Shown in pieces: positions 22,011-63,945 of a stretch of DNA of 64,000 bases (position 1 is the stretch's first letter; the number at the start of each line of letters is the position of its first letter). The stretch is taken from the NCBI GenBank assembly GCA_041744755.1, contig JBGTKC010000087.1:2600-66599 (forward strand). Reading direction: 5' to 3'. The position numbers and the translations under genes are program-made. The DNA comes from Saprospiraceae bacterium (GTDB lineage: Bacteria > Bacteroidota > Bacteroidia > Chitinophagales > Saprospiraceae). Under the pieces are notes generated by a model. That model made no database searches and had not been told where the DNA came from. It worked only from the letters and a program-made list of their open reading frames with translations.

Positions 22011-22025
22011 ATTTTGGCGAAAGCC
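22011..22025 (+). repeat. Copy of over-represented word GTTTTGGCGAAAGCC (14/15: ATTTTGGCGAAAGCC)
   Basis: Intergenic, between the convergent rimM and ybbR-like stops. Confidence 0.9.
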
Positions 22026-22052
22026 GCACTTCAGCTGAACCGCCGTCCGTGG

Positions 22053-23039
22053 TCACTGCGGGCCCTCGGCGCTGAGCTCGTTGCGTGCGGTTACAGCTTT
22101 AATGGTGAAGAGCTCCACGGAACGTGGCACCACCGTGGTCGTGACAGCGTAACTCGGGACCTTCCTCACGATCACCGGCAGTTCCCGAACGAATTGCTTA
22201 TTACTAGCGTCAAATTCGACCACGAGCTCAAACTCTTCAGCGTTGAGTCGCTCGTAGTCCTCGAGCCCGATCGCGCACGTGACAAGAACCTGCGAAGGGA
22301 AAATGCTCAGCGAGTCCTTACCTGCGTACCCGGTCACTTTGACGGGGACGTAGATGCTCCGCTCAGTGTATTGCTGGACGCGGAGCAGTACGCTGGTCAA
22401 CGAGGGTTCGACCTGGATGGCCCCGATGGGATCGGCGGCGATGCCGACCTTCGTGCTCAGGGAGTCCCGCAGGCCTTCGACACTCAGGGTGTCGGTGTAC
22501 CAGACCTCCAGCTCATTGATGCGGGAGCGGGGACCGGTGAGGAGCACGGAGTCGACCGAGAGACTTGCCTGCCCCGCGCCGGAGAAGCCAGGGTGATAGC
22601 CGACGACACTGCGGAGCTCAAGCGGGACGTACTTGCTGGCCAGTCGCTCAGTGCGTACTACGACTCGGGGGTTCGTGATTGCGTCTACTTGGAGGTTTTG
22701 CCCCAGGAAAGCCTCGGCGATCTCGCGCCGTAGGGAGATGATACCGTCGGGGTTTTGACGCAAGTCTATACTGTCGATCATAATACGGCGGTTGCCGCGC
22801 AGGAAATGCTCGCGCAGGAGATCCCAGCCCGTAGCCGTAACCGTGGCCTCGATACTTTTAGGTGGGTCCTGCGCGAAGGTCGAGCCAACCGGTAGTGCGT
22901 AGTCGAGTTCGATCGTCTCGGTGGTGCTGTAGCGCTCCGAGAGGCGAATAGAGCACCAGAAGATGAGGGCCGCGACGATGCAACCCACGATGGCCTTGCG
23001 GTTGACAACCTGCGGCCTACTCGTTGCTAGCCTCTCCAA
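22053..23039 (-). CDS. YbbR-like domain protein
   Basis: N-terminal TM followed by repeated beta-rich modules. Its position downstream of yajC matches the usual Bacteroidota order. The family call is from composition and context only. Confidence 0.6.
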   Translation of the reverse strand: MERLATSRPQVVNRKAIVGCIVAALIFWCSIRLSERYSTTETIELDYALPVGSTFAQDPPKSIEATVTATGWDLLREHFLRGNRRIMIDSIDLRQNPDGIISLRREIAEAFLGQNLQVDAITNPRVVVRTERLASKYVPLELRSVVGYHPGFSGAGQASLSVDSVLLTGPRSRINELEVWYTDTLSVEGLRDSLSTKVGIAADPIGAIQVEPSLTSVLLRVQQYTERSIYVPVKVTGYAGKDSLSIFPSQVLVTCAIGLEDYERLNAEEFELVVEFDASNKQFVRELPVIVRKVPSYAVTTTVVPRSVELFTIKAVTARNELSAEGPQ

Positions 23040-23343
23040 ATTTGGCGACGGTTAAGTCCCGGCTCACAGAGCCGAGGGTGAAGTCGAGGTATACGTTTTT
23101 GCCGGTCTCGACGGTGACAATGCCGTCGGCGGCGTCGATCTTCGAGACCCGTCCCACGATCCCAGAGCTGGTCACGATCCGGTCGCCGCGCTTGATGCTG
23201 GTCTGGAAGAGGTCCTGCTTCTTCTGGCGCTGGGTCTGGGGTCGGAGGATGAAGAGGTAGAATACGCCAAACATCATCACGAGCATGATGGGCGTGACGA
23301 GGTTGGGCGGGATGATGCTCTGGAGGAAGAGGGCTGCGGACAT
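23017..23343 (-). CDS. yajC: Preprotein translocase subunit YajC
   Basis: 108 aa. TM, then LRPQTQRQKKQ...GDRIVTSSGIVGRV, the YajC signature. Confidence 0.9.
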   Translation of the reverse strand: MSAALFLQSIIPPNLVTPIMLVMMFGVFYLFILRPQTQRQKKQDLFQTSIKRGDRIVTSSGIVGRVSKIDAADGIVTVETGKNVYLDFTLGSVSRDLTVAKFGEASNE

Positions 23344-23361
23344 AATCGAAGGGGCTTGGAC

Positions 23362-23880
23362 TTACTCGGCGGCGTCGACGGTGCCGACGAGCTGCAGTTG
23401 TGTAGTGTTTGGGTAGGTGTTGGCCGTCAGCGTGATCACTTTGAGCTGGGGGCCGGTCTTGCCTCGGGTGTCGAATCTCACGCCGACACTAGCGGTGTCG
23501 CCCGGGGGAATCGGCTCGCGGGGCCACGCAGGCACTGTGCAGCCGCAGGTACTGGAGGCGTGAGTGATGATGAGGGGTCGCTTGCCGGCGTTGCGGAACG
23601 TAAATCGGCGAGTCACTACCATACCTTCGTCGACGGCCCCGAACTCGTAACGGCTTTCGCCAAAACTGATTCTCGGGATCCCGACAGTGTCCAGGCTGCC
23701 GTCGCCACTGATGGGTACGCGCACGATACCAGTAGTAGCGACGGCCGCACTCCCGGACGGAACCCCGGGCTCGTCCACCCCACCCCGGCACGAGCTGCCG
23801 ATCACGCCCGCGAGCATTGCCGCGAACACTAGAGAAAGCTTGGTCCTTTCTTTGCGAAGCATTTTAAGCGTCTCGATCAC
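23362..23880 (-). CDS. DUF1573 domain protein
   Basis: FGAVDEG...FTFRNAGKRPLIITHASSTCGCTVPAWP is the DUF1573 core. The start may be the internal Met at 23862. Confidence 0.8.
   Translation of the reverse strand: MIETLKMLRKERTKLSLVFAAMLAGVIGSSCRGGVDEPGVPSGSAAVATTGIVRVPISGDGSLDTVGIPRISFGESRYEFGAVDEGMVVTRRFTFRNAGKRPLIITHASSTCGCTVPAWPREPIPPGDTASVGVRFDTRGKTGPQLKVITLTANTYPNTTQLQLVGTVDAAE
23652..23666 (-). repeat. Exact copy of GTTTTGGCGAAAGCC
   Basis: Plus strand reads GGCTTTCGCCAAAAC. Inside the DUF1573 CDS, on the mRNA-sense strand. Encodes FGES. Confidence 0.9.
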
Positions 23881-23895
23881 GGCGCGAAACTACGT

Positions 23896-24408: not shown

Positions 24409-24451
24409 TGCGCAGGCTAGTAGGCTGTCGCCAAAACGAGTCTCAAAAGGG

Positions 24452-27532: not shown

Positions 27533-30355
27533 TCACCCTACCACGAAATTGATCATCCGCCCAGGCACGACGATGACGCGCTTGATCTCCCCTTCTGCTA
27601 GGTAGCTCGCGAGCTCGGGCAGCATTTTGGCGGAAGCCTCCAACTCCTCCTTGCTCGCAGCCGACGGCATTCTTGCGGTGGTACGCTTCTTACCATTGAC
27701 GCTGATCGGGTACTCTATCTCGGATTCGACGAGGTACTGTTCCTCCAGCTGCGGGAACTGCGCCAAGTGGATAGAATCGGTATGACCGAGCCTTTCCCAA
27801 AGCTCTTCGGTGAAGAAAGGCGCGAAGGGGGCCATCAGTCGGGCGAGTGGCTCGAGAACCTGGCCGCTCCGGCACCCCTGACCGCGTAGGTCGTTGACGC
27901 AGATCATAAACGTGCTTACGCAAGTATTCATACTGAAGCGCTCGATGTCCTCGCGGACTTTCTTGATTGCCGTATGGAGGGACTTCATTGCCTCCTCGGT
28001 CGGGGCTACGTCGCTCACGGTCCACTGGTCCTGCTCGTCGTAGTAGAGGCTGTACAGCTTACGCAAAAACTTGGCGACGCCCTCGATGCCATTAACGCTC
28101 CACGGTTTGTGCTGCTCGATCGGCCCGAGGAACATCTCGTACATCCGGAAGCAGTCCGCGCCGTAGCGCCCGATGATGTCGTCGGGGTTGACGACGTTGT
28201 AACGGGACTTAGACATCTTACCGACCTCGGAGTGGGTCAAGAATTTGTTCGGGTCGGCGCCAAAACGAAATTCGGTGTCGGCATACTCCGGTCGCCATGC
28301 GCGGAAGCGCTCGATCTGATCGACGTCGAGGTAGCTCGCGCGATCGTCGAAGCCATAGTCGCTCACGTAGTCGACGAGCACGTAGTTGGGCGCGAAGGCA
28401 TCCCGATTGGCTTCCTCGACGAGGTCTGCGCTCGCGAAATACTTGTCCCCCTTGTGGAAGAAGATGGTCTCGATCACGCCTTGGATCATGCCCTGGTTGA
28501 TGAGCTTGGCGAAGGGTTCTTTCGTGGGCACGACGGCCAGGTCGTACAGGAACTTCTGCCAGAACCTCGCGTAGAGCAGGTGACTGACCGCGTGCTCCGT
28601 GCCGCCGACGTAGAGGTCAACGTTTTGCCAGTAGGCCATCGCTTCCGCGCTGGCCAGCGCCTCCGCGTTGCCGGGGTCCATGTATCGCAAAAAATACCAA
28701 CTACTACCTGCGACGGCGGGCATGGTGTCGGTCTCGCGGGTGTAGCCCGGGAGCTCGTTGACCCAATCCGTGGCGCGCGCCAGGGGGCCAGCCCCGCCTG
28801 AGGTGGGCTTGTAGTCGTCAAGTTTAGGCAGGACTACAGGCAGATCCGCATCCGGGGCACGCTCGGGGATGCCCTCGGCGTCGTACACGATCGGAAAGGG
28901 CTCACCCCAGTAGCGCTGGCGTGAGAAGTTCGCGTCGCGCAGCTTGAAGTTGGTCTTGCCCTCCCCTACTCCGAGTTCTTCGAGTCGCGCGGCGGCGGCG
29001 GCGATTGCTGTTTTGACAGGCATGCCGTCGAGGAAAGCGCTGTTGATCAGTGTTCCGACCTTATCGCTCGCCTTCGCGCCCGCTGGCCGGTCGACCACCG
29101 GGATGATTTCGATCCCGTAGTGCCTCGCGAAACGCTCATCGCGCTCATCGTCGCTCGGTACCGCCATGATCGCGCCCGTGCCGTAGTCCATCAGGACGTA
29201 CTCCGCCACATACACCGGCAGACGTTTGCCGGAGAGCGGGTTGAGTGCATAAGCCCCAGTAAACTCTCCGCTCACTTCCTTGACGTCGGACTGGCGGTCG
29301 ATGTCGCTTCGACCCGCGGCTCGAGCTTTGTAAGCGGACACGGCTTCACGGCGATCAGCGATGGTCAATCGGTCGACCAGGGGGTGCTCCGGGGCCAGCA
29401 CCATGAAGGTGGTTCCGTAGATGGTATCGGGGCGAGTGGTGTAGACCTCGATCGACGCGTCCGATCCCTCGACCGCGAAGCGAACCTGTGCCCCGGTCGA
29501 GCGTCCGATCCAGTTGCGCTGCTGGGTCTTGAGGCTGTCGGTCCAGTCGAGCGCTTCCAGGTCATCGAGGAGCCGTTGCGCGTAGGCGCTCGTGCGCAGG
29601 CACCACTGCAGCATCGGGCGTTTCTCGACCGGGTGCCCGCCCCGCTCGGATACACCGTCCTTAATCTCGTCATTCGCGAGCACTGTGCCGAGTGCCTCAC
29701 ACCAGTTGACATAGGCCTGTTTGCGGTACGCGATTCGGTAGTCCATGAGGATCTCGGACTGCCGCTTACGCGAAAACTCGCGCCACTCCTCCGCGCCGAA
29801 CTGTAAGTTCGAATCGCTGGCCGCATGGACGCCGGTGACACCCGTTTTGGCGAAAGCCGCCACGAGGTCGCTGATCGGCATAGCCTTCCCCTCGGCGAGG
29901 TCGTAGTAGCTATCGAACATTCGCGCGAAGGCCCACTGCGTCCACTTGTAGTAGACCGGCTCCGAGGTCACCACCTTGCGGTCCCAGTCGAACGAGAAGC
30001 CGATGAGGTCGAACTGCTCCCGGTAGCGGTGCATATTGGTCGCCGTCGACTCGGACGGGTGGATCCCCGTCTGGATGGCGTACTGCTCTGCCGGTAGTCC
30101 GAAGCTGTCGTAACCCATCGGGTGCAACACGTTGAACCCCTCCATCCGCTTGTAGCGTGAGTAGATGTCTGAGGCGATGTAGCCCAGGGGGTGCCCTACG
30201 TGCAGTCCCGCGCCACTCGGGTAGGGGAACATGTCGAGGACGTAGAATTTAGGTTTCCGCTCGTCGCCGGCGGAGGGTGTGTCGACGCGGTAGGTCCCGC
30301 GCTCTCGCCACGCCGTTCGCCATTTCGCTTCAAAATGCTGAGGAGAGAAAGGCAT
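27533..30355 (-). CDS. leuS: Leucine--tRNA ligase
   Basis: 940 aa. HVGHPLGY (HIGH) and KMSKS motifs, CP1 editing domain. Confidence 0.97.
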   Translation of the reverse strand: MPFSPQHFEAKWRTAWRERGTYRVDTPSAGDERKPKFYVLDMFPYPSGAGLHVGHPLGYIASDIYSRYKRMEGFNVLHPMGYDSFGLPAEQYAIQTGIHPSESTATNMHRYREQFDLIGFSFDWDRKVVTSEPVYYKWTQWAFARMFDSYYDLAEGKAMPISDLVAAFAKTGVTGVHAASDSNLQFGAEEWREFSRKRQSEILMDYRIAYRKQAYVNWCEALGTVLANDEIKDGVSERGGHPVEKRPMLQWCLRTSAYAQRLLDDLEALDWTDSLKTQQRNWIGRSTGAQVRFAVEGSDASIEVYTTRPDTIYGTTFMVLAPEHPLVDRLTIADRREAVSAYKARAAGRSDIDRQSDVKEVSGEFTGAYALNPLSGKRLPVYVAEYVLMDYGTGAIMAVPSDDERDERFARHYGIEIIPVVDRPAGAKASDKVGTLINSAFLDGMPVKTAIAAAAARLEELGVGEGKTNFKLRDANFSRQRYWGEPFPIVYDAEGIPERAPDADLPVVLPKLDDYKPTSGGAGPLARATDWVNELPGYTRETDTMPAVAGSSWYFLRYMDPGNAEALASAEAMAYWQNVDLYVGGTEHAVSHLLYARFWQKFLYDLAVVPTKEPFAKLINQGMIQGVIETIFFHKGDKYFASADLVEEANRDAFAPNYVLVDYVSDYGFDDRASYLDVDQIERFRAWRPEYADTEFRFGADPNKFLTHSEVGKMSKSRYNVVNPDDIIGRYGADCFRMYEMFLGPIEQHKPWSVNGIEGVAKFLRKLYSLYYDEQDQWTVSDVAPTEEAMKSLHTAIKKVREDIERFSMNTCVSTFMICVNDLRGQGCRSGQVLEPLARLMAPFAPFFTEELWERLGHTDSIHLAQFPQLEEQYLVESEIEYPISVNGKKRTTARMPSAASKEELEASAKMLPELASYLAEGEIKRVIVVPGRMINFVVG
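29844..29858 (+). repeat. Exact copy of GTTTTGGCGAAAGCC
   Basis: Inside leuS, antisense to the gene. The gene reads AFAKT. Confidence 0.9.
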
Positions 30356-32285: not shown

Positions 32286-32990
32286 CTACCGCGAGGTCAA
32301 ATCATGTTTTAGCGTAAGCACCCAGTAATCGAAGATCAGTTCTCTTTTGTACAACAGCCGAGAGGTGCACCTGAGGCCTGCGTGGGTACAAGCCGACAAG
32401 TATTCACCGAGGGCGAGCTGGTGGGGGTGGAGCACGTCACCGGGGACGGACCTAAACAGCGGCTTTAGCCACTCGCGCCGGTGAGCGTCGACGCTGAGTA
32501 CGAGCGTGCCCGCCGGGGACAGGGCTTTCGCCAAAACCCGCAACACAGTCTCTAGGTCCCGGACGTGGTTGAGGACGTTTAGGCAGTACACGAGATCGAA
32601 TACGGTTTCGGGTCGATACTCCTCCAACGCACACGGCACCCACAACACGTTAGGATGATGCACGCGCGAGAAGTGCGGTAGCGCCTCGTAGTAATTAAGT
32701 AGTGGATCTACGGCCGTGACGCTGGCCCGTGGGTACACCAGAAATACCCCCGCCGGCCCACAGCCCGCGTCCAATATGCGGAGGTCGTACTGGCGATCGG
32801 CTTCCAGAGTGCGACGCAGACCGACGGCCGCGACGAGCGTGCGCCAGTAGGTCTCCTTCCACTCGCGGTACGCCCGCACGTCTCTTCCGGCGAGGTAGCG
32901 CCGCCACCAGCGGCTCTCGGCGAACTGCGCGATGCGCCACCGCAGGCGGCCGACGGAGTGGCGATCGATTTCGATGCGGCGAACATACAC
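32286..32990 (-). CDS. Class I SAM-dependent methyltransferase
   Basis: ILDAGCGPAG motif I and DLVYCLNVLNHV. Only the C-terminal 234 codons of the 569-aa track ORF look coding. The best start is GTG at 32990; there is no Met codon anywhere in this gene. Confidence 0.7.
   Translation of the reverse strand: MYVRRIEIDRHSVGRLRWRIAQFAESRWWRRYLAGRDVRAYREWKETYWRTLVAAVGLRRTLEADRQYDLRILDAGCGPAGVFLVYPRASVTAVDPLLNYYEALPHFSRVHHPNVLWVPCALEEYRPETVFDLVYCLNVLNHVRDLETVLRVLAKALSPAGTLVLSVDAHRREWLKPLFRSVPGDVLHPHQLALGEYLSACTHAGLRCTSRLLYKRELIFDYWVLTLKHDLTSR
32523..32537 (-). repeat. Exact copy of GTTTTGGCGAAAGCC
   Basis: Inside the methyltransferase CDS, sense strand. Encodes VLAKA. Confidence 0.9.
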
Positions 32991-33020
32991 GCCTCCTGCC
33001 GTGCCTACCTTCGCGCGCTT

Positions 33021-34037
33021 ATGAAAATCGCGCCCGGCCAGACTGTCCTCCTCAAAAACACCCGCGAACGCGCTACCGTCATCCAGGCGCTCGACGGTGG
33101 CCAGTACCTCGTCGAGGCGGCCATGGACAAAGAGCGCTTCACGGTTGACGCGGAGCAGGTGGACCCGATCACCGCTACGGCCACTTCCAGCACCTCGCCC
33201 CAACCCCAGGAGCAGGCCGGCGATATCCGCCTGTACGCCGGCACCACCGGCGCCGCCGTCCAACTCGCCTTCCTGCCCGCCGGCGAACTCGATTACAACG
33301 TCACAATCCTTAACCACAGCGACGAGATCATCGTTTTTGCCGCAAGGCTCCTCAGTCACCTGGGACAGCAGTGGAGCCGCCACGGGGTGCTCGGTCCGAC
33401 GCGCGGCCTGCAGCTCGGGCACCTCTACCGCGACCTCATGAACGAGGGCGCCCACATCGAGGTCCAAGTAAGCCGCAAGGACACCGCCGGCACCGACTCG
33501 ATGCAGGAGCGCGACGTCAACCTCAAGCCTAAGAGTTTCTACAAGAACGTCCGCGCGGTGGATTGGTACCCAGACGAGCTCACGGTGATAGACGTCTTTC
33601 AGAAAGTTAAGCTCGTTCGTGCCGCACCTTCTCCCGCCCCGAAGCCAGTTGCGCCCGTGGCTACCATTGGCGCTCCCGATCCGCAGGCGGCGGCAGTCGC
33701 CATATTGGCCACGCGCAAAAGAGTGCTGCCTTACACCATCATGGCCGCCGCCGAGTTCCCGCGCGACCTCGATCTCCACATCGAGCACCTCGTGGACGAC
33801 AAAACGGGGATGACCAACGAGGAAATCGTCCAGATCCAGCTTGAGCACGTGCGGCAGTACCTCGACCGCGCGATTCGCCTCGGGATTGACAAGGTTTATA
33901 TTATCCACGGCAAGGGAAGCGGCGCGCTCCGCAACCGCGTGCACCAACAACTCACGCTGATGGGGGACCTCGAAGGCTTCAAGAACGAGTACCACCCGAG
34001 GTACGACTATGGGGCCACGGAAGTGATGCTGCGCTAG
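33021..34037 (+). CDS. Smr/MutS2-C domain protein
   Basis: C-terminal LDLHIEHL...KVYIIHGKGSGALRNRVHQQL Smr domain. The N-terminus MKIAPGQTVLLKNTRERATV fits the family. ATG at 33021. Confidence 0.8.
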   Translation: MKIAPGQTVLLKNTRERATVIQALDGGQYLVEAAMDKERFTVDAEQVDPITATATSSTSPQPQEQAGDIRLYAGTTGAAVQLAFLPAGELDYNVTILNHSDEIIVFAARLLSHLGQQWSRHGVLGPTRGLQLGHLYRDLMNEGAHIEVQVSRKDTAGTDSMQERDVNLKPKSFYKNVRAVDWYPDELTVIDVFQKVKLVRAAPSPAPKPVAPVATIGAPDPQAAAVAILATRKRVLPYTIMAAAEFPRDLDLHIEHLVDDKTGMTNEEIVQIQLEHVRQYLDRAIRLGIDKVYIIHGKGSGALRNRVHQQLTLMGDLEGFKNEYHPRYDYGATEVMLR

Positions 34038-34056: not shown

Positions 34057-34605
34057 CTAGCTAGCTTTCGGGAACCACCCCATTGCGAAGTCTAACAGTG
34101 AGTCGTGGTGCTCACGGGCGTCAATATTCGAATAGCTGGTCGTTATCCCGATGGTATACATGTGCAGGCTTTCGCCAAAACCAATATCCGAAGGACTGTC
34201 TCCCACCATGACCGAACGCTCGAAGGCGATCTCTGGGAAGAGCTCCCGCGCACGCAAAGCCATGCCCGGTGAGGGCTTACGACACGGATCACGGTCCGCG
34301 GCGAGGGCAGGGCAGTGCAGTATAGCATCCAAGTGAACCCCGGCAGCAGCGGCCCCCGCCGAGAGTGCGGCGTGGACGCGATTGACGTCCTCCTCGGTCA
34401 TTAGGCCTTTGCCGATACCCTGCTGGTTGGTTACCACTACGATCCGTCCGAACTCGCGGCGTAGCAGCACCAAGGCCGACAAGACTCCGGGCAACCACTC
34501 AAAATCCTTCACCGACCTCACGTAGTCGCCAATTACGCGTCGATTCAGTACCCCGTCGCGATCCAGAAACAGCGTCCAGCCGCGATCCACCGTCGGCCGC
34601 ATCAT
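34057..34605 (-). CDS. gmhB: D,D-heptose 1,7-bisphosphate phosphatase / HAD-IIIA hydrolase
   Basis: FLDRDGVLN motif I, VVVTNQQGI, HCP...CRKPSPGM zinc/loop motif, VGDSPSD. Confidence 0.8.
   Translation of the reverse strand: MMRPTVDRGWTLFLDRDGVLNRRVIGDYVRSVKDFEWLPGVLSALVLLRREFGRIVVVTNQQGIGKGLMTEEDVNRVHAALSAGAAAAGVHLDAILHCPALAADRDPCRKPSPGMALRARELFPEIAFERSVMVGDSPSDIGFGESLHMYTIGITTSYSNIDAREHHDSLLDFAMGWFPKAS
34167..34181 (-). repeat. Exact copy of GTTTTGGCGAAAGCC
   Basis: Inside gmhB, sense strand. Encodes FGES. Confidence 0.9.
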
Positions 34606-52489: not shown

Positions 52490-54289
52490 CTAGTAAGAGA
52501 CGAGCCAGAGGGCGATGCCGCGAGCCGGCACCCGACTGCCGTCTATTGGTTGACTACTGCATGTCGGCGCTCTGGCTGTCAGGTCCCGTGATGGCTCGGC
52601 ATCGCGCAAATCGAAGGGCCCGGTGCCCAGGTTGGCCACCACCACGATTTCTGCGCCGTCCGTACGGGGCATTCGCCAAGACAAAACTTCCGGAGCCAAT
52701 AAAGCCACGGAATGATCGTCGATCCCGCGCAGGCGCATCGGGAAGAGCTCGTTACGGACCCGGATAGCTTCGCGGTAGAAGTTGTACACTTCGCCGCGAC
52801 GGCGGTGGCTGAGCTTCGCGGAGAGAAAGGTGGTTTCAGCCCCGGGATCGGGCACGCGTTCGCCATCGCCTAAAAATGCTGCAAACTCTCGTGCCCGCCC
52901 CTCGCGGGTGGCTTTTAGGATGCCCTGGTCGCCGTGAGAAACGAAATACGGGAAAGGGGCGGGTTCAGCGTACTCCTCACCCATCCAAAGCATCGGCGTG
53001 AACGGGCTCCACAAGTACATGCCCGCCACGAGCAGATACTCCGCGTGCGTAAGGTGTTCGTGGAGTCGCTCACCGAGCGCCCGATTGCCGATCTGGTCGT
53101 GATTCTGCCCGAAGACGACGAACTGCTGTACCTGCGCTTTGGTGGGGCGGCGTCCGAACGTGCGTCCGCGGTGCTCGCTGTACTGGCCCGTGTAAACGTA
53201 TGCGTCCCTCAAAGCTCTATAGATGTGATCGATGTCCCCGAAGTCGGAGTAGTACCCGGTACGGTCTTCGGTGAGGAACGTACGTATGCCGTGGTGGAAC
53301 TCGTCGACCCACTGGCCCGACATGCCCAGACCATTCTCGCTAGTGGGGCGAGTGTAACGCGGGTCGTTAAGGTCGCACTCGGCGATGAGCAAGTAGGTGC
53401 GACCGCGCTGCCGTCCCCACTCCGCAACGGTATCGCTGATCTCGGCTAGGAGGTGCGTGGCGGAAGAGTCCAGCAGCGCGTGAACGGCGTCCAGGCGCAG
53501 GCCATCGGCACCGACGTCGACGAGCCAGGTGCGCACCACCGATAGCACTAAATCGCGGACGCCGTCGCTGCCAGGTCCGTCGGTATTGAGTGCCGGGCCC
53601 CATGGCGTGCGCTTCTGCTCGGAGAGATAGTTCGCGAAGGTCCCGAGGTAGTTACCCTCCGGGCCGAGGTGGTTGAACACTGCGTCGATGATGACGGCGA
53701 GCCCGCGTCCGTGGGCGGCTGCGACGAGTTTGCGGAGGCCGACGATCCCACCGTACGACCATTGCGCCGCCTGCCAGTACACCCCGTCATAGCCCCAATT
53801 GCGCTGCCCGGGGAAGGCATTCACGGGCATCAGTTCGATGGCGGAGACGCCGAGGGCCACGAGATCGTTCAGGTGCTCGATCGCGCCTTCGAAGGTACCC
53901 GCCCCGGAGAAGGTGCCGACGTGGAGTTCGTAAATGATGAGGTCGTCGAGGGGGCGACCGGCCCAGCCCTCGACGTCCGGCGGGAGCTCGCGGAGGTCGA
54001 CGACCGCCGAAGCGCCGTGCACGCCATCCGGTTGCGCGAGGCTCGCCGGGTCGGGCCTCGGTGCATCCTGGAGATTGGTTCGCAACAGGTATTGCTCCCC
54101 TTGCGCGATCTGGAGGCCGTCGGCGACGTGGTACCCGGCCGGAGTCTTAGACAACTCGTAGACAGTGCCGCTAGCTAGCAGCTGCAGACTTGCCAACGTG
54201 GCCGCCGGAGCAAGGAGACTTACGTCAAAACCTGAGGCGCCGCGCCAGACGCCTGGTCTGCGTCGGGGATGATTCGGGTCGGTGCTCAT
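52490..54289 (-). CDS. treZ: Malto-oligosyltrehalose trehalohydrolase
   Basis: GH13 motifs VIIDAVFNHLGPEGNY, DGLRLDAVH, LIAECD, QNHDQIGNR. ATG at 54289 overlaps the upstream TGA as ATGA. Confidence 0.95.
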   Translation of the reverse strand: MSTDPNHPRRRPGVWRGASGFDVSLLAPAATLASLQLLASGTVYELSKTPAGYHVADGLQIAQGEQYLLRTNLQDAPRPDPASLAQPDGVHGASAVVDLRELPPDVEGWAGRPLDDLIIYELHVGTFSGAGTFEGAIEHLNDLVALGVSAIELMPVNAFPGQRNWGYDGVYWQAAQWSYGGIVGLRKLVAAAHGRGLAVIIDAVFNHLGPEGNYLGTFANYLSEQKRTPWGPALNTDGPGSDGVRDLVLSVVRTWLVDVGADGLRLDAVHALLDSSATHLLAEISDTVAEWGRQRGRTYLLIAECDLNDPRYTRPTSENGLGMSGQWVDEFHHGIRTFLTEDRTGYYSDFGDIDHIYRALRDAYVYTGQYSEHRGRTFGRRPTKAQVQQFVVFGQNHDQIGNRALGERLHEHLTHAEYLLVAGMYLWSPFTPMLWMGEEYAEPAPFPYFVSHGDQGILKATREGRAREFAAFLGDGERVPDPGAETTFLSAKLSHRRRGEVYNFYREAIRVRNELFPMRLRGIDDHSVALLAPEVLSWRMPRTDGAEIVVVANLGTGPFDLRDAEPSRDLTARAPTCSSQPIDGSRVPARGIALWLVSY

Positions 54290-56553
54290 GGTTTCGTCGA
54301 CTTTACCTGCTCGAGCCAGGGCCGACCCTCTGTCCTGGAGCTGGGGACCCGCTCGCGGAGAAAGGCCACCACGGAGCGCGAACTGAGCGTGAAGGTCTCC
54401 TGCGCGGGGACGGGTACCTCCTGGGGGAAGAGGCCTCGACTCGTGTCCACGACGCATCGCCAGGCGGTGACCTCGGGGTTGCCCGGGAGCGTGAACTCAG
54501 CGTCTTCCCAGTGGGAGTTGAAACCCAGGAACCAGATGTCGTCCTTGATCGGCATCCCGCGTTCGTTCATCTCGGCGAGGGCTTCGCCGTTGAGGACGAT
54601 ACCGAGGACGCGGGAGTCGGGGTCGGTCCAAAAGTTGTCGCCTACCTCGCGTCCGTCCGCGCCGATCCAGTAAATATCCGAGCGTTTGTCGCTGGACACC
54701 GTACGACCGCTGAAGAAGCGCCGTCGGTGAAGTACGAGATTGTTGCGGCGCACTTCGATCAGGGTTTTGACGAAAGTCCGCAGTCCGACCTGCTCGGGCG
54801 TCCAATTCCACTTGAAGTAAGCTAATTCATTGTCCTGACAGTAGACATTGTTGTTGCCGAGCTGCGTGCGGCCGACCTCGTCGCCGTACGTAATCATCGG
54901 CACGCCCTGGCTGAGCAGCAAGGTCGCGAAGAAGTTGCGTTGCTGCTGGAGACGCAGCGCGTTGACCTCCGCATTCTCCGTCGGACCCTCGATGCCGCAG
55001 TTCCAACTCTCGTTATGGGATTCACCGTCATTGTTGTTCTCGCCGTTCGCCCCGTTGCGTTTGGCGTTATAGCTCACGAGGTCCCGCATTGTGAAACCAT
55101 CGTGCGCGGTGACGAAGTTGATACTCGACCAGGGCTGTCGCCCGCCGGCCTCGTAGAGGTCGCTCGAACCCGTAAGCCGGTACGCCAGTTCGGGTAGCTT
55201 GCCGTCGTCGCCCCTCCAGTACTGCCGGACGTTGTCGCGGTACTTACCGTTCCACTCGGACCAAAGCACCGGGAAATTACCAACTTGGTAGCCCCCCGGA
55301 CCGACATCCCAGGGTTCGGCGATAAGCTTTACCTGCGAGATAATCGGGTCCTGGTGAATAGTATCGAGGAAGGTGGATAGCTTACCGACCTCGAAGAGTC
55401 CGCGCGCCAGGGCCGAAGCGAGGTCGAAGCGGAACCCGTCGACGTGCATCTCCGTGACCCAGTACCGCAACGAGTCCATCACGAGTTGCAGCACGCGAGG
55501 GTGGAGCATATTCAGGGTGTTACCCGTGCCGGTGTAGTCCATGTAGAACTGCTCATTGCCTTCGACGAGCCGGTAATACGCTTGGTTGTCTATTCCCTTG
55601 AACGACAGCGTCGGGCCGTAGTGGTTGCCTTCGGCCGTGTGGTTGTACACCACGTCGAGGATCACCTCGAGGCCCGCTGCGTGGTAGGCCTTCACCATCT
55701 GCTTGAACTCCTTGACCTGGTGACCAGGCTCTTTGTCGGCGGCGTACTCGCTGTGGGGTGCGAAGAAGCCGAGGGAATTGTAGCCCCAGAAATTGCGCAG
55801 CCCTCTATCGACCAAGATCTGGTCGTGCACGAAGTGGTGCACCGGCATTAGCTCGATGGCCGTCACCCCGAGGTCGACGAAGTACGCGATCACCTCCGGG
55901 CACGCCAGCCCGGCGTAGGTGCCGCGTAGCGCCTCCGGTATCCTGTCGCAGAGCGCGGTCATACCCTTGACGTGCAGTTCGTAGATGATCGTCTCGTGCA
56001 TCGGGGTCTCGGGCAAGAGGTCACCGTCCCAGTTGAAGCCCGGGTCGACGATCACGCTCTTGTTTGCGAACGGGGCCGAGTCCGACTCCTCCATCGACAG
56101 GTAGCGCGTCTTGCTCAGATCCGATAGCGGATAGCCGAACATGGCCGGCGACCAGTCGATCGGCCCGTCGATGGCCTTGGCGTATGGATCCAACAGTAGC
56201 ATGTTCGGATTGAACAGCTGTCCGTGCACGGGGTCCCACTCGCCGTATACCCTGTAGCCGTAAAGCATTCCGGGCCGGATCCCGGGCAAGAAAATGTGGT
56301 AGACCTGATCGGTCCGCTCGATCATCGTGAAGCGGATCGCCTCCTCTCGTGGGCTGTCCGGATAGAAGAGGCACAGCTCGATGACGGTCGCATTCTCCGA
56401 GAAGATCGAGAAGTTAGTGCCTTTCTGTGAGTAGCTGGCCCCGAGCGGATAAGGGCGCCCCGGCCAGGGGATCAGTGAGTTGAGGAGTTGCGGGGAGAGG
56501 TGTTCGGGGGGCGTCACCGTTGCCCCTCCCGGCGGAGCTTGCGTATTAATCAT
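54286..56553 (-). CDS. glgX: Glycogen debranching enzyme GlgX/TreX (copy 2)
   Basis: 755 aa from ATG 56553, with the same GH13 motifs as copy 1. The track ORF extension to 56802 runs antisense through tRNA-Leu, so I reject it. Confidence 0.95.
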   Translation of the reverse strand: MINTQAPPGGATVTPPEHLSPQLLNSLIPWPGRPYPLGASYSQKGTNFSIFSENATVIELCLFYPDSPREEAIRFTMIERTDQVYHIFLPGIRPGMLYGYRVYGEWDPVHGQLFNPNMLLLDPYAKAIDGPIDWSPAMFGYPLSDLSKTRYLSMEESDSAPFANKSVIVDPGFNWDGDLLPETPMHETIIYELHVKGMTALCDRIPEALRGTYAGLACPEVIAYFVDLGVTAIELMPVHHFVHDQILVDRGLRNFWGYNSLGFFAPHSEYAADKEPGHQVKEFKQMVKAYHAAGLEVILDVVYNHTAEGNHYGPTLSFKGIDNQAYYRLVEGNEQFYMDYTGTGNTLNMLHPRVLQLVMDSLRYWVTEMHVDGFRFDLASALARGLFEVGKLSTFLDTIHQDPIISQVKLIAEPWDVGPGGYQVGNFPVLWSEWNGKYRDNVRQYWRGDDGKLPELAYRLTGSSDLYEAGGRQPWSSINFVTAHDGFTMRDLVSYNAKRNGANGENNNDGESHNESWNCGIEGPTENAEVNALRLQQQRNFFATLLLSQGVPMITYGDEVGRTQLGNNNVYCQDNELAYFKWNWTPEQVGLRTFVKTLIEVRRNNLVLHRRRFFSGRTVSSDKRSDIYWIGADGREVGDNFWTDPDSRVLGIVLNGEALAEMNERGMPIKDDIWFLGFNSHWEDAEFTLPGNPEVTAWRCVVDTSRGLFPQEVPVPAQETFTLSSRSVVAFLRERVPSSRTEGRPWLEQVKSTKP

Positions 56554-56789: not shown

Positions 56790-56809
56790 CCGTAGCAATC
56801 ACACACCTG

Positions 56810-57475: not shown

Positions 57476-58294
57476 TTACCGCAAATCTATGCGGCGCCAG
57501 CGCGCCGGGAAGACGAGCGTACGTTCGCTGGCGAGAAATAGCGATCTCCGGTCTGGCGCTACCGCTACCGATTCGTATTGCGTAAGCGTAAACGGCGCCC
57601 TGAGTTTACGGACGCGGTAGTCGTTTTGGCGAAAGCCCGCCATCGAGGCACGATAAATCGTGGTCTTGGTGAACGGCAGCGGGCCGATTAGCTGAAAATT
57701 GTAGGCCAGGACCGCGATGTCCGTATCGTCCAGCCAGACGGCATCGGTTACACTGCGCCGCCGCAACACAAAACTATCGCGCAGTTGGAGTCCGACGGCG
57801 GGGCCGCCCGTGAGTGCGGCCTGGTAGACGTATGCCATGCGACACTTACCTCCGCCTAAGGTCTTCGCTTTCGTGATCAGCGTGAGTGTGTCGTCCCGCA
57901 CGAGGCACGCCTCGCAGTCTAGGGCCCCGCGCGGGTACACGAGCGTGTATGCGCCGCGGAGCTGCCCGAGCCGGTCTACTCGGTAAGCGACGACATCGGA
58001 CCTCACGCGACCGTTGTCTCCGATATCGCAAACGATAAACTCCGCCGCGCTCGAATCATACGCTACGGCTTCCCAATCTCTGTTAGGAAGGCTTTCGCCA
58101 AACCGCTCCGCACTGCCATCTCGGAGGTCGACCGACCAGAGGTATCCGGCATTGCCGCTGTCGTTGACGGCGACGGCAGTCGAGTCACTGGTCATCACCC
58201 AGCCGCTAATTTCGTCGAGACTATCGGGCAGCCGCCGTTCGGCCGGCACACAGGCCCCGAGCGAGATTACGAAAATCTGTGCCACGATCGCCAA
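57476..58294 (-). CDS. Hypothetical lipoprotein, beta-rich
   Basis: TTG at 58294 gives (M)AIVAQIFVISLGAC, a lipobox. The remainder is GC3-rich and beta-strand-like. The upstream 131 codons of the track ORF look non-coding. Confidence 0.55.
   Translation of the reverse strand: MAIVAQIFVISLGACVPAERRLPDSLDEISGWVMTSDSTAVAVNDSGNAGYLWSVDLRDGSAERFGESLPNRDWEAVAYDSSAAEFIVCDIGDNGRVRSDVVAYRVDRLGQLRGAYTLVYPRGALDCEACLVRDDTLTLITKAKTLGGGKCRMAYVYQAALTGGPAVGLQLRDSFVLRRRSVTDAVWLDDTDIAVLAYNFQLIGPLPFTKTTIYRASMAGFRQNDYRVRKLRAPFTLTQYESVAVAPDRRSLFLASERTLVFPARWRRIDLR
57623..57637 (+). repeat. Exact copy of GTTTTGGCGAAAGCC
   Basis: Inside the hypothetical lipoprotein CDS, antisense. The gene reads GFRQN, a different frame. 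Confidence 0.9.
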
Positions 58295-60727: not shown

Positions 60728-61891
60728 ATGCAGCAGGCCCCCCACAAGCTTACCATTGCCGTCCTCGGGGGCGGACAGCTCGGCAGCATGATGGCGGAGG
60801 CTGCGCAACCGTTGCGCCTGCGGGTCCATTGCCTGGATTCCGACGCGGCCGCCCCGGCGAGCTATAATGCCGCTGCCTTTGCCGAGGGCGACATCCGCGA
60901 CGCCCGCACCGTGGAGGCCTTCGGGCGCCACGCCGACGTGGTGACGATTGAGATCGAAAATGTCAGCACGGAGGGGATGCGCCGCCTGCGTGAGGACCAC
61001 GGTCGGCGGGTGTGCCCGAGTCCGGAAGCCTTAGCCATCATTCAGGATAAGGGACTACAAAAAGAGCACTTCCGACAACACCAGGTGCCGACCGCGCCAT
61101 TCGAATTATACACCGACGAGGCGAACCTCCGTGCCCGGGTTGGGACGGGTGACCTCCCCTACCCCTTTGTCCAGAAGACGCGCACCGGCGGTTACGACGG
61201 CAGGGGAGTGGCGATCGTCCGCGACGAACGCGATCTACATCAACTCCTTCCGGGTCCTAGCCTCACGGAGCCGCTCGTAGCGTACACTAAGGAGTTGGCT
61301 GTAGTCGTGGCGCGCCGTGCTGCGGGTGAAGTCCGCAGCTTTCCGGTTGTTGAAATGGACTTTGATCCGCAGCAAAATTTGGTCGTGCAACTGCTGTCAC
61401 CGGCGCGCGTCGACGCTGCGGTCGCCCGCAACGCACAGACGATCGCCGAAGAGCTTGCCGCCTCCCTCGGTATCTGCGGCCTACTCGCAGTAGAGTTTTT
61501 CCTCCTCGCCGATGGCTCGCTGCTTGTCAATGAGGTGGCGCCGCGTCCGCACAACTCCGGACACATCACTATGGACGGCTTCGCCACCTCGCAATTCGAG
61601 CAGCACCTGCGGGCGATCCTCGACTGGCCGCTCGGATCCACCGAGCAGTACCGGCCAGCGGTCATGGTGAATTTGCTGGGCGAGGAGGGCGCCACGGGAC
61701 CCGCCGTGTACGAGGGCCTCGAAGCAGCGTTGGCGATGCCGGGTGTCCACGTCCACCTTTACGGTAAGCACACCTCGAAGCCCCACCGCAAGATGGGCCA
61801 CGTCAATATCGTAGCCGAGACCTTCGACGTCGCCATGCGGCGGGCGGAGAAAGTGCGGGCGATTCTGCGGGCTTTCGCCAAAACCAACTGA
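60728..61891 (+). CDS. purK: 5-(carboxyamino)imidazole ribonucleotide synthase
   Basis: IAVLGGGQLGSMM N-terminus, ATP-grasp core, NEVAPRPHNSGH motif. ATG at 60728. Confidence 0.95.
   Translation: MQQAPHKLTIAVLGGGQLGSMMAEAAQPLRLRVHCLDSDAAAPASYNAAAFAEGDIRDARTVEAFGRHADVVTIEIENVSTEGMRRLREDHGRRVCPSPEALAIIQDKGLQKEHFRQHQVPTAPFELYTDEANLRARVGTGDLPYPFVQKTRTGGYDGRGVAIVRDERDLHQLLPGPSLTEPLVAYTKELAVVVARRAAGEVRSFPVVEMDFDPQQNLVVQLLSPARVDAAVARNAQTIAEELAASLGICGLLAVEFFLLADGSLLVNEVAPRPHNSGHITMDGFATSQFEQHLRAILDWPLGSTEQYRPAVMVNLLGEEGATGPAVYEGLEAALAMPGVHVHLYGKHTSKPHRKMGHVNIVAETFDVAMRRAEKVRAILRAFAKTN
61869..61883 (-). repeat. Exact copy of GTTTTGGCGAAAGCC
   Basis: Last codons of purK (RAFAKTN then stop), antisense to the gene. 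Confidence 0.9.
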
Positions 61892-61895: not shown

Positions 61896-62393
61896 ATGGT
61901 ATCGATCGTAATGGGGAGTGACTCGGACTTGCGCGTGATGCAAGCCGCGGTGGACGTGATGGAATCCTTCGGGATCACCTACGAGGTGGATGTCGTCAGC
62001 GCGCACCGCACGCCGCGCAAGCTCTACGACTTCGCCACCGGAGCGGCCGAGCGCGGGGTGCAGGTCATCATCGCCGGCGCCGGAGGCGCGGCGCACTTGC
62101 CGGGCATGGTGGCGAGCCTGACGCCCTTACCGGTGATTGGCGTGCCGATCAAAAGCTCGAATAGTATCGACGGCTGGGATTCCGTACTGTCGATTCTGCA
62201 GATGCCGGGCGGGGTACCGGTGGCGACCGTGGCGTTAGACGGAGCGAAAAATGCAGGATTACTGGCGGTACAAGTCTTGGGCGCCTCCGATCATGCCGTG
62301 CGAGCGAAGATTGCGGCTTACAAGCATGGCCTGGCCGAGGAGGTTTTGGCGAAAGCACAAAAAGTCCGTAAGCAGTTTAATGCGAAGGAGTAA
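61896..62393 (+). CDS. purE: 5-(carboxyamino)imidazole ribonucleotide mutase
   Basis: VSIVMGSDSDL, SAHRTP, IAGAGGAAHLPGM motifs. Confidence 0.97.
   Translation: MVSIVMGSDSDLRVMQAAVDVMESFGITYEVDVVSAHRTPRKLYDFATGAAERGVQVIIAGAGGAAHLPGMVASLTPLPVIGVPIKSSNSIDGWDSVLSILQMPGGVPVATVALDGAKNAGLLAVQVLGASDHAVRAKIAAYKHGLAEEVLAKAQKVRKQFNAKE
62343..62357 (+). repeat. Copy of GTTTTGGCGAAAGCC (14/15: GTTTTGGCGAAAGCA)
   Basis: Inside purE, sense strand. Encodes VLAKA. Confidence 0.9.
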
Positions 62394-62458
62394 GTACGGC
62401 GTTACTGCCCGCGCGTACAGCCGGTTCCGACGTATTTTCAGGTTGCGCGACGTCCTAC

Positions 62459-63007
62459 CTAGGCCGATCGCATGGAGGCTAAATCTGCGGAGATCTCGCG
62501 GCGGAAGGCCTCGTAGGCGGACTGCAGGCGTTCTCCTTGCGACTCTACGCGCGTTTTGACCTGCCCTAGCTCGCTCGTTAGCCGCCGCTCTTCACCCTCG
62601 GCGGCGCTGAGACTGCGCTGGAGCTCATCTATTTGCTCTCGTATTTGCCGCTGCTGCCCGCGGACCTCTTCGATGGCGCGGCGCTCGGCGGCCAGGCCCT
62701 CGGTAAGGCGCGTCGCCATCGCGGCGAGAATCTTGTCGTGTTCGGTCTCGAGGGCGGCGAGGTGGCCCTCGGTGCTTTTGAGGAGGCTGTGGCGATCACG
62801 CCCCAGGGTTTCGGCGGTCACGAACACCGACATCAGGGCGTCCCGCTCGCTGAGGCCCTTTTCGACTAAGGAGCGGACGGCAGTTCGGAGCTCGATGTAG
62901 GTAAATGTCGCGTCATCCACCTGCGCGAGGGCACGTGCGTATACCTGGCTAGCCTCGGCATCGACGGAGTCGTCGAGGCGGAATGCTGCAGAGACGTTCT
63001 TGGACAT
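62459..63007 (-). CDS. Hypothetical coiled-coil protein
   Basis: About 182 aa from ATG 63007. The C-terminal half is heptad-like and rich in E/R/Q/L. No family recognised. Confidence 0.5.
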   Translation of the reverse strand: MSKNVSAAFRLDDSVDAEASQVYARALAQVDDATFTYIELRTAVRSLVEKGLSERDALMSVFVTAETLGRDRHSLLKSTEGHLAALETEHDKILAAMATRLTEGLAAERRAIEEVRGQQRQIREQIDELQRSLSAAEGEERRLTSELGQVKTRVESQGERLQSAYEAFRREISADLASMRSA

Positions 63008-63141
63008 AGGAAAGCGACTCGATGGGTGAGGCAAGGCTTAGGATAGCCCGTTCAGCGTGTGGGCGGCAAACTAGGGCCGCGCCTCGTGCAGTCCCGGCGA
63101 AGTTCTACCAAACTAAGTTCAGCATCGATAGTCACGACCCG

Positions 63142-63945
63142 TTACCAGGCAATCTGAGCCATCTTTTCCACGAGCACCCGCGCCTCGTGCCGAGCTGCTG
63201 CTTCGAAGTCGCTCCCGCCGGAGGCGTACAAGATCCCGCGGCTTGAGTTGATCAGCAGGCCGCCGCCGGCGATTCTGCCGTGGCGTAAAACACCCTCCAG
63301 GTCTCCGCCTTGCGCGCCGATGCCCGGAACGAGGAGGAAGTGTTCGGGCACCAGTTCGCGGATCCGGGAGAAGTCGTCGGGTTTGGTCGCGCCCGTCACG
63401 AACATCATATTATCGGGGGTCCCGAATTCGGCGCAGGTCACGAGGACGTGCTCCCACAGTGGCCGACCGGAGGCCATGAGACTCTGCTCGAAGTCGGCAC
63501 TACCGGAATTGCTGGTCAACCCGAGCACCACAGCCCAGTGTCCGTCGATCAGGAAGGGCTCGATCGAATCGCGCCCCATGTACGGCGCAACGGTCACCGC
63601 GTGGCAGCCGTAGGTCATGAAGAAGGTTTGTGCGTAGCGTTCGGCGGTATTGCCGATGTCGCCTCGCTTCGCATCGGCGATGAGGAAGTGGGTAGGCGGG
63701 ACGTGCGCGCACGTTTTGGCGAAAGCCTCCATCCCTGGCACGCCGAGGCACTCAAAAAAGGCGAGGTTGGGTTTGTAAGCCACGGCCAGATCCAGGGTCG
63801 CGTCGATGATCCGGCGACAGAAGTCCGCGACGCCGCCCGCGTCGCGTTTGATGCCAGCGGGCAGCTGATCGAGTACGGGGTCGAGGCCGACGCACAGCAT
63901 CGATCCGGTGCGCGCGATGGCGGCTTCTAGGGTTCGGCGGTCCAC
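63142..63945 (-). CDS. pyrF: Orotidine 5'-phosphate decarboxylase (type 2)
   Basis: LCVGLDP, ADAKRGDIGNT, VPGIGAQGG motifs, 267 aa. Confidence 0.93.
   Translation of the reverse strand: MDRRTLEAAIARTGSMLCVGLDPVLDQLPAGIKRDAGGVADFCRRIIDATLDLAVAYKPNLAFFECLGVPGMEAFAKTCAHVPPTHFLIADAKRGDIGNTAERYAQTFFMTYGCHAVTVAPYMGRDSIEPFLIDGHWAVVLGLTSNSGSADFEQSLMASGRPLWEHVLVTCAEFGTPDNMMFVTGATKPDDFSRIRELVPEHFLLVPGIGAQGGDLEGVLRHGRIAGGGLLINSSRGILYASGGSDFEAAARHEARVLVEKMAQIAW
63713..63727 (+). repeat. Exact copy of GTTTTGGCGAAAGCC
   Basis: Inside pyrF, antisense. The gene reads AFAKT. Confidence 0.9.

Follow-up and report, generated by a model that had tools for sequence, protein, structure and literature searches.

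A 64,000-nucleotide stretch from a Saprospiraceae bacterium (GenBank assembly GCA_041744755.1, contig JBGTKC010000087.1, positions 2,600 to 66,599; the whole stretch is called the window below) is studded with a 15-nt word, GTTTTGGCGAAAGCC, whose underlying unit is a small hairpin: a G and four Ts, a 3-bp stem (usually GGC), a GNNA tetraloop and the complementary stem. To judge from the way its stem varies, what evolution preserves here is evidently the folding of a single strand into a mini-hairpin of the GCGNNAGC type behind a 5′ T-tract. Alignments with related genomes show a word selected at the DNA level, one that arises by point substitution inside ordinary genes and, once made, is kept almost unchanged while its flanks diverge. 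We tentatively interpret the element as an uptake-sequence-like tag for self DNA that would be read on single-stranded DNA.

The 15-mer occurs ten times in the window, five times on each strand, and not once in 100 dinucleotide shuffles. Its 13-mer core, TTTTGGCGAAAGC, has 12 exact copies (7 plus, 5 minus) against a shuffle mean of 0.04, and 22 copies at up to one mismatch. We also shuffled synonymous codons in the 49 coding sequences (CDS) that make up 94% of the window, keeping the proteins and the codon usage. The resulting means were 1.1 for the 13-mer, 0.03 for the 15-mer and 2.2 for the generalised hairpin motif, compared with observed counts of 12, 10 and 29; we would attribute the mean of 1.1 to the single intergenic copy at 22012, which is left unshuffled. 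Because these means lie far below the observed counts, the word is not explained by the encoded proteins. In all, the window (61.5% G+C) has 30 copies of the full generalised motif, one per 2.1 kb and 16 versus 14 by orientation, plus several near copies. These counts bear out the first-pass annotation of this DNA, which had reported 12 copies of the 13-mer and ten of the 15-mer as a gross over-representation, with a strand split of 7:5 and four sense to seven antisense copies (the remaining one is intergenic). It was also right that no exact 13-mer or 15-mer lies in the first 22 kb, but what it called mere variants there are full members: six generalised-motif copies lie in this part, of which five carry the compensatory stem swap GTTTTGCC-GNAA-GGC.

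The stem swap shows why the element is not the fixed 15-nt word that it had been taken for. Near copies of the word vary at one base, GGCG-N-AAGCC, and the second repeated word is GTTTTGCC-GNAA-GGC. When we searched the window for TTT-N3-GNNA-N3 with no requirement for pairing, 31 of the 105 sites had perfectly complementary arms; by our estimate of 1 in 64, random arms would give about 1.6. By stem, the 31 sites comprise 19 GGC/GCC, 8 GCC/GGC, 3 GAC/GTC and 1 CGC/GCG, with almost no mixed arms. The same holds among 286 GTTTT-N3-GNNA-N3 sites from 52 Saprospiraceae loci. Here the middle pair is GC in 176, CG in 55, AT in 14 and TA in 6, with some 25 sites unpaired; 239 have C-G as their closing pair; and 186 are fully paired compared to 67 under arm shuffling. 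At 59 loci of other taxa, nothing was paired beyond the single copy through which each locus had been ascertained.

The loop is as constrained as the stem. In 110 kb of DNA chosen independently of the motif, GTTTT plus a stem is followed by 53 tetraloops (50 of them G..A), 2 pentaloops, 3 hexaloops and no triloops; the loops observed are GAAA, GGAA, GCAA, GTAA, GACA, GGCA and GTCA. On the 5′ side, T occupies each of the four preceding positions in about three-quarters of the GNC-GNNA-GN'C hairpins in these genomes, and G the fifth in 64-81%. The position table has no conservation outside the 15 nt, 3′ of the hairpin included, in agreement with the earlier statement that the flanks are not conserved.

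These features are those of an unusual DNA structure. The GCGNNAGC mini-hairpin is extraordinarily stable DNA, governed by rules that include a closing C-G pair and a G..A loop (PMC13037366), and the motif, whose core equals this mini-hairpin, follows them in its closing C-G, its G...A loop with free middle bases and its G-C second pair. A hairpin at the phage G4 origin, CGGCGAAAGCCG, has a melting temperature of 89 C, binds SSB weakly and resists exonuclease (PMC13037366). Nearest-neighbor folding gives our motif only -2.3 kcal/mol, equally for both strands, and so does not distinguish them; such models underestimate mini-hairpin stability (PMC13037366). Since the stem covaries, the preserved property is the ability to form a hairpin, and the covarying stem together with the GNNA loop points to recognition of single-stranded DNA. 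We considered whether the T-tract might instead pair with the loop and rejected this, as the two do not covary.

To describe where copies lie, we combined the window with 28 loci of two related genomes, calling genes as long open reading frames (ORFs) with high G+C at third codon positions, a heuristic in the related loci. Of the 188 copies in this set, 83 run sense to a gene and 76 antisense, while 29 fall outside called genes. Thus 159 (about 85%) are inside CDS and, with some 17% of the surveyed DNA non-coding, the intergenic share is in proportion; all six reading frames are used. We sampled 14 segments of 8 kb around the complete 5.25-Mb chromosome OZ244050.1 and counted 38 copies on the plus strand and 40 on the minus strand, with both orientations in every segment, so there is no polarity by replication arm; in the window itself, the GC skew is too weak for assigning a direction of replication. 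Genome-wide, the copies probably number in the thousands. They are dispersed and mixed in orientation, and their spacing is near random rather than regular (coefficient of variation, CV, 0.88 versus 0.95). Independence from strand, frame and gene, as first claimed, therefore stands. The lack of orientation dependence is what one would expect if either strand can become the substrate.

There is some order between neighbors. Over the window and 40 related loci, adjacent copies are in opposite orientation 101 times and in the same orientation 62 times (P=0.0014), a moderate result that is strong in the window and one genome but missing from another. Pairs closer than 100 bp are inverted in 15 cases and direct in 4, with the inverted excess at 42-84 bp; an example is the pair in LeuRS at 29763(-)/29844(+), kept in 7 species. 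Alternation and the excess of inverted pairs fit a strand-specific signal that is needed on both strands.

Two other ways of reading the hairpin can be weighed on this evidence. GNRA-like loops and stem covariation are classic signatures of RNA, and the element could be a GNRA-tetraloop hairpin after U4 that acts in RNA processing, stability or protein binding. We give this only the slimmest chance: sense and antisense copies are equally common, intergenic ones occur in proportion, C at loop position 3 (GACA, GGCA, GTCA) breaks the GNRA rule and fits the DNA rule GNNA, and Rfam 15 at its gathering threshold matches nothing in the window except four tRNAs. Two candidates at the level of transcription were rejected as well, an intrinsic terminator, in which the U-run would be on the wrong side of the hairpin, and the Bacteroidota promoter motif (TAnnTTTG), as no upstream TA is conserved.

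Alternatively, the dyad-symmetric 3-bp arms could be bound as duplex by a dimer of an abundant clade-specific protein, one that is nucleoid-associated or serves to structure or silence the chromosome. High copy number, indifference to orientation, equal use of coding and non-coding DNA and the clade-specific word all suit such a site. A dimer that tolerates G, C or A in the middle of the arm would, however, accept mixed arms, and these are nearly absent (CG 55 versus CC 4 and GG 8). The motif is also strongly asymmetric, with G-TTTT on one side only and a fixed G..A loop; orientation alternation would be unexpected; and the conserved features coincide exactly with those that stabilize the single-strand mini-hairpin. 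We regard a duplex site as improbable.

We then asked which organisms carry the motif. An exact-word scan with one genome per species returned at least 111 stretches. Among the matches listed, about half are from metagenome-assembled genomes of Saprospiraceae, Lewinellaceae or Saprospirales, ranging from 33% to 67% G+C; many of these stretches have several copies per 8 kb, and other taxa yield single matches only. The generalised motif, again among the matches listed, has 167 copies at 52 Saprospiraceae loci versus 60 at 59 other loci. Viral contigs are not enriched (72 copies in 72 loci, exactly one each). To remove the ascertainment bias, we took nine loci through their LeuRS homologs and not through the motif, with identities relative to the LeuRS of the window:

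L190: LeuRS 84%, 22.8 kb, 12 copies.
L184: LeuRS 76%, G+C 68%, 22.8 kb, 14 copies.
L191: LeuRS 73%, G+C 61%, 22.8 kb, 7 copies.
L185: LeuRS 73%, G+C 53%, 22.8 kb, 3 full copies and 7 matches at 1-2 mismatches.
L186: LeuRS 72%, G+C 48%, 22.8 kb, 4 full copies and 10 matches at 1-2 mismatches (loop/stem variants in both counts).
L192: LeuRS 62%, G+C 56%, 20.7 kb, 0 copies.
L187: LeuRS 58%, G+C 56%, 22.8 kb, 1 odd hairpin (prefix CTTTT, stem TGT/ACA).
L188: LeuRS 58%, G+C 55%, 22.8 kb, 0 copies.
L189: LeuRS 57%, G+C 56%, 22.8 kb, 0 copies.

The motif is present in these loci at LeuRS identities of 72% and above and absent at 62% and below; L192, L187, L188 and L189 have no match to the 15-mer even at 2 mismatches. 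By these comparisons, the carriers are one uncultured clade of Saprospiraceae/Lewinellaceae. This agrees with the Bacteroidota host assumed in the first-pass annotation. Relatives with lower G+C (47-53%) favor GTTTTGGCGAAAGCT, which has a final T and so a G.T outer pair; this preference, seen in L185, L186, L019/L046/L067/L094/L095 and L031/L057/L075/L099/L109, behaves like a dialect of the word. A search of the outgroup loci for another hyper-abundant word gave only local tandem or nearby repeats. In L185, a 12-mer, CCCAGCACCCAG, and its shifts recur 7-8 times, probably as a coding tandem repeat in one gene.

Next, we followed individual copies between species. The window is syntenic with two related loci, L024 (74% DNA identity) and L190 (75.6%), and the copies in the window, with their state in relatives where aligned, are as follows:

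668..682, plus strand: GTTTTGCCGGAAGGC, stem-swapped GCC/GGC, loop GGAA.
863..877, minus strand: GTTTTGCCGAAAGGC, GCC/GGC.
7345..7359, plus strand: GTTTTGCCGAAAGGC, GCC/GGC, within an amine-oxidase gene.
7665..7679, minus strand: GTTTTGCCGGAAGGC, GCC/GGC.
13058..13072, minus strand: ATTTTGCCGAAAGGC, GCC/GGC, within a gamma-glutamyltranspeptidase gene.
20775..20789, plus strand: GTTTTGGCGACAGCC, loop GACA, identical at the orthologous L190 site.
22011..22025, plus strand: ATTTTGGCGAAAGCC, intergenic, about 20 nt past the RimM stop codon.
22752..22766, plus strand: GTTTTGACGCAAGTC, stem GAC/GTC, identical in L190.
23652..23666, minus strand: canonical 15-mer, sense in a DUF1573 gene, identical in L190.
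24423..24437, minus strand: GTTTTGGCGACAGCC, in a convergent intergenic spacer.
27624..27638, plus strand: ATTTTGGCGGAAGCC, antisense in LeuRS, kept in L190, L184 and L024.
29763..29777, minus strand: GTTTTCGCGTAAGCG, stem CGC/GCG, sense in LeuRS; 7 species keep the site but vary at loop position 2.
29844..29858, plus strand: canonical 15-mer, antisense to LeuRS (peptide AFAKT), retained by 7 species and lacking in outgroups.
32523..32537, minus strand: canonical 15-mer, in a methyltransferase gene, identical in L190, loop GGAA in L024.
33334..33348, plus strand: TTTTTGCCGCAAGGC, GCC/GGC, in an Smr-domain gene, identical in L190, lost in L024.
34167..34181, minus strand: canonical 15-mer, in a HAD-hydrolase gene, identical in L190 and L024.
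37299..37313, plus strand: canonical 15-mer, one base different in L190.
37681..37695, minus strand: GTTTTGGCGTAAGCC, identical in L190.
39648..39662, minus strand: GTTTTGGCGTAAGCC, within a BatA-domain gene.
43287..43301, plus strand: TTTTTGCCGGAAGGC, GCC/GGC, within a polysaccharide flippase gene.
43927..43941, plus strand: GTTTTGGCGTAAGCC, motif copy.
44788..44802, minus strand: canonical 15-mer, antisense in a glycosyltransferase gene.
46238..46252, plus strand: GTTTTGCCGGCAGGC, GCC/GGC, loop GGCA.
47342..47356, minus strand: GTTTTGGCGTCAGCC, loop GTCA.
50845..50859, plus strand: canonical 15-mer, antisense in an alpha-amylase-family gene.
54217..54231, minus strand: GTTTTGACGTAAGTC, GAC/GTC.
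54764..54778, plus strand: GTTTTGACGAAAGTC, GAC/GTC.
57623..57637, plus strand: canonical 15-mer, antisense (peptide GFRQN).
61870..61884, minus strand: canonical 15-mer, antisense, last codons of purK.
63713..63727, plus strand: canonical 15-mer, antisense in pyrF.
62343..62357, plus strand: near copy GTTTTGGCGAAAGCA, outer pair broken, sense in purE.
58090..58104, minus strand: near copy GGTTTGGCGAAAGCC, shortened T-tract.
11939..11953, minus strand: near copy GTTTTGGCGAATGCC, loop A to T.
13699..13713, plus strand: near copy GTTTTGGCGCAAGCT, final T, as in the lower-GC variant.
51254..51268, minus strand: near copy GTTTTAGCGAAAGCG, outer pair broken.

A few positions given earlier change in this list. 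The minus-strand copy placed at 61869 starts at 61870, and the variant placed at 27634 is at 27624-27638. At 22011 and 62343, listed with the plus-strand copies, the 13-mer is present but the full 15-mer is not, the first base being A in the former and the last base A in the latter. Another one-mismatch copy, at 51255, had been overlooked. As for stem type, all five copies at 668-13072 are GCC/GGC and the canonical GGC/GCC first appears at 20775 (Fisher P=0.001, post hoc); no spatial clustering of stem type was seen in 28 other loci (55/104 versus 58 expected), which leaves this run a peculiarity of the window.

Twelve copies can be aligned between the window and L190; 8 of them are identical, and 11 agree at no fewer than 14 of the 15 bases. 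The baseline for all 15-nt windows in this alignment is 6.0% identical and 18.6% at 14/15 or better (P about 1e-7), and the 60 bases flanking the aligned copies are 57-92% identical. Aligning LeuRS codons from ten genomes gives two sites, one antisense (peptide AFAKT) and one sense (peptide FSRK), that 7 of 7 clade members keep, synonymous positions included, across 48-68% G+C; only loop position 2 and the outer pair differ. In the three outgroups, the sequence at these sites is unrelated and has no gap. Other sites occur in just part of the species and vary by substitutions only, with no indels where copies were gained or lost. The LeuRS copies fall in segments that are poorly conserved or unalignable compared with Thermus LeuRS.

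Such conservation, far above the local baseline, rules out neutrality. Likewise, because independent assemblies from different projects and technologies share copies at the same positions, the word is not an assembly artefact, an outcome that the first-pass annotation had named as fatal to its proposal. Its claim of selection on the DNA word itself is upheld by the excess over codon shuffling and the independence from frame and strand, and its exclusion of a miniature inverted-repeat transposable element (MITE), repetitive extragenic palindromic (REP) sequence, insertion sequence or clustered regularly interspaced short palindromic repeat (CRISPR) by the clean gain and loss sites and unconserved flanks.

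The same data bear on whether the copies could be relics of a mobile or templated process (a minimal system like REP and its associated tyrosine transposase, RAYT; a MITE; an in-frame palindromic insertion of the Rickettsia type; repeated conversion from a master copy), or else an artefact or a neutral bias. A tetranucleotide followed by a hairpin does resemble REP architecture, and inverted pairs 42-84 bp apart recall REPIN doublets. Yet most copies are inside CDS, motif-bearing and motif-free species differ by no indels, the flanks are unrelated and the segment with the LeuRS pair aligns gap-free in motif-free outgroups; orthologous copies in independent assemblies exclude an artefact, and conservation over the local baseline excludes neutrality. 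We therefore hold all of these to be very improbable. We had also noted a copy in L190 in opposite orientation, seemingly in the same intergenic spacer as one in the window; it is actually in a different, expanded spacer and is uninformative. That spacer (L190 15900-16300), which the window lacks, has long poly-G/poly-C runs and a 20-nt inverted repeat (TTTTGGTTTCCTCCGCGGAG ... CGGAGGAAACCAAAA) and could represent a small palindromic element that is mobile. L190 also has a tandem heptamer, (CTAGACC)n, immediately downstream of LeuRS, at 12880-12950 (OZ244050.1).

In gene content, the window is ordinary chromosome: LeuRS, SecDF, RimM, MnmA, purE/purK, pyrF, an aldolase, a polysaccharide cluster, four alpha-amylase-family genes and 4 tRNAs, with no transposase, phage or RAYT gene within the 64 kb. 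The tRNA genes are at 30501-30574(-), 31511-31595(+), 56707-56789(+) and 56810-56893(+). Because the last two overlap the 5′ end of the ORF at 54286-56802(-), its true start has to be further downstream. Four consecutive minus-strand alpha-amylase-family genes (47709-56802), two with CBM48, look like a glycogen-debranching or trehalose-synthesis cluster. The 569-aa ORF at 32286-33995(-) is chimeric, made up of overlapping frames; by synteny, the minus strand carries a methyltransferase gene (about 32286-32950) and the plus strand an Smr-domain gene (32958-34037).

How does the motif compare with known genome-wide words? The first-pass annotation had seen in it the signature of the DNA uptake sequences (DUS) of Neisseriaceae and the uptake signal sequences (USS) of Pasteurellaceae. 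These occur in thousands of copies, many in ORFs, prefer poorly conserved residues and have dialects (PMC2817400, PMC3630211). The formal resemblance is real: the present motif, too, is an asymmetric word in the short range of 10-15 nt that recurs roughly once in 1-2 kb, on both strands, situated in genes in several frames and at poorly conserved protein positions, made by substitution, conserved between relatives, restricted to a clade and provided with dialect-like variants. What does not carry over is the fixed plain word. DUS and USS are read as sequence in duplex DNA; our motif has compensatory stems and a strict GNNA tetraloop, so it is probably recognized as a folded single strand. The host also belongs to another phylum, and the intergenic inverted pairs of DUS/USS that double as terminators are not seen among its copies.

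The closest structural relative is mini-hairpin DNA (GCGNNAGC or GCGNAGC, described by Hirao). The core of our motif, GGCGAAAGCC, is found inside the G4 hairpin CGGCGAAAGCCG, and the closing C-G, sheared G..A and free middle loop bases are shared (PMC13037366); stems of the CCGAAGG type are known as well (PMC13037366). A 2026 review by the discoverers of the mini-hairpin names only a few phage or plasmid origin and promoter sites, among them the phage G4/St-1 origin, RSF1010 ssiA and the promoters of the N4 virion RNA polymerase (PMC13037366). In contrast to these single sites, often set in longer stems, the present motif is chromosomal with probably thousands of copies, has a fixed 5′ G-TTTT, uses tetraloops and never a GNA triloop, and lacks a conserved start site 3′ of the hairpin. 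Despite a core identical to that of the G4 hairpin, it thus has neither the 3′ conservation nor the strand bias of a G4-type primase site.

Other systems match in fewer respects. REPs and REPINs, which depend on RAYTs, share the order of 5′ tetranucleotide then hairpin, read as single-stranded DNA, and the inverted doublets; REPs are extragenic, about 20-40 nt long and spread by insertion, whereas our motif is 15 nt long, mostly intragenic (159/188 in CDS) and made by orthologous substitutions only, without indels. The highly iterated palindrome HIP1 (GCGATCGC) of cyanobacteria is likewise a short, hyper-abundant, clade-specific word inside genes. Its function is unproven, and it is a perfect duplex palindrome linked to methyltransferases, unlike the asymmetric, looped motif with its covarying stem. 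Chi and the chromosome-organizing words KOPS (FtsK-orienting polar sequences) and AIMS (architecture imparting sequences) are over-represented chromosomal words too. Chi is read on single-stranded DNA, and words of this kind are skewed to one strand per replichore; our motif is balanced around OZ244050.1 (38 versus 40) and mixed within every locus. Nor does it have the makeup of a CRISPR or tandem repeat, being dispersed (CV 0.88) and of mixed orientation. Judging by sequence, we file the word with the genome-wide selected DNA words and do not assign it to DUS/USS, because a plain duplex read-out is lacking and an uptake role is putative.

What process would read a folded single strand? The main rival to the uptake-like tag is a housekeeping signal for single-stranded-DNA transactions within the cell, with selection acting copy by copy and no role in import. 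The hairpin could be an SSB-free landing pad or stop that loads primase or restart factors, recruits a RecA loader or helicase, or blocks exonuclease in gap or break repair. Strong positional conservation speaks for such a signal, a frequency of about 1 per 2 kb is similar in order to the spacing of Okazaki fragments or Chi, and an excess of inverted pairs is compatible with a signal required on both strands. The core GGCGAAAGCC is, moreover, the mini-hairpin of the phage G4 complementary-strand origin, which excludes SSB and resists 3'-5' exonuclease, and related mini-hairpins occur in RSF1010 ssiA and N4 promoters (PMC13037366). Several observations make this explanation rather unlikely in our view. 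The copies have no replichore strand bias, with both orientations at every locus, and nothing is conserved 3′ of the hairpin, where priming of the G4 type starts. Lagging-strand priming and signals of the Chi/KOPS type are strand-skewed. Sudden appearance in one subclade with total absence in sister lineages would also be unexpected for a basic signal.

An uptake-like self-DNA tag, in our tentative reading, would work as follows. A protein of the clade would read the folded hairpin and its T-tract on single-stranded DNA, in some process where the two strands are equally likely to become exposed, most likely the import and recombination of DNA from relatives by natural transformation or an equivalent route of exchange. 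Fragments with the tag would be preferentially taken up, protected or recombined, such that mutations creating a tag would spread and those destroying one would be replaced, the combination of molecular drive and selection proposed for DUS/USS. The outcome would be a self-DNA tag akin to an uptake sequence, defined by structure plus sequence. Import and recombination fit best because they are the sole well-understood route to thousands of asymmetric words in genes regardless of frame and strand; they would also explain the clade boundary, the dialect-like variant, the lack of viral enrichment and the placement on both strands.

Several points weigh against this interpretation. The window holds no competence or pilus genes. 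Known uptake receptors, such as ComP for DUS, read double-stranded DNA, and covarying stems are not a feature of known uptake sequences; at the level of recognition, then, the analogy breaks down. A function exerted site by site in replication, repair or chromosome organization would likewise give strong positional conservation, and orientation alternation, significant overall, is not so in every genome (33 versus 27 in OZ244050). Finally, we found no uptake sequence reported in Bacteroidota and, searching the literature by sequence string and by topic, no description of this word (the string returned unrelated primers only, and the 20 best-ranked papers of a looser topic search were unrelated), as the first-pass annotation had supposed.

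In its broader form, the proposal is that the chromosome is marked by thousands of structure-defined tags, each a 10-nt mini-hairpin with a T-tract, which a dedicated protein would read single-stranded in import, recombination or self/non-self discrimination. We put this forward as a possibility on the doubtful side of even. If true, uptake- or recombination-type signals would for the first time extend beyond Proteobacteria, and a genome-wide DNA word would for the first time have its specificity in the folded single strand and not in duplex sequence. Words under selection across a whole genome (DUS, USS, Chi, KOPS, HIP1) are rare and each has exposed machinery that handles DNA; this one sits in an uncultured environmental clade of Bacteroidota with no known uptake specificity. 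The mini-hairpin, known from a few phage and plasmid origins and promoters, would gain a chromosomal role in probably thousands of copies. The sharp boundary in LeuRS identity should make the reader protein findable by comparison of gene content, and the word provides a clean marker with which to bin sequences and to detect gene flow within the clade. The way in which it has spread offers a natural experiment in which molecular drive would be reshaping proteins.

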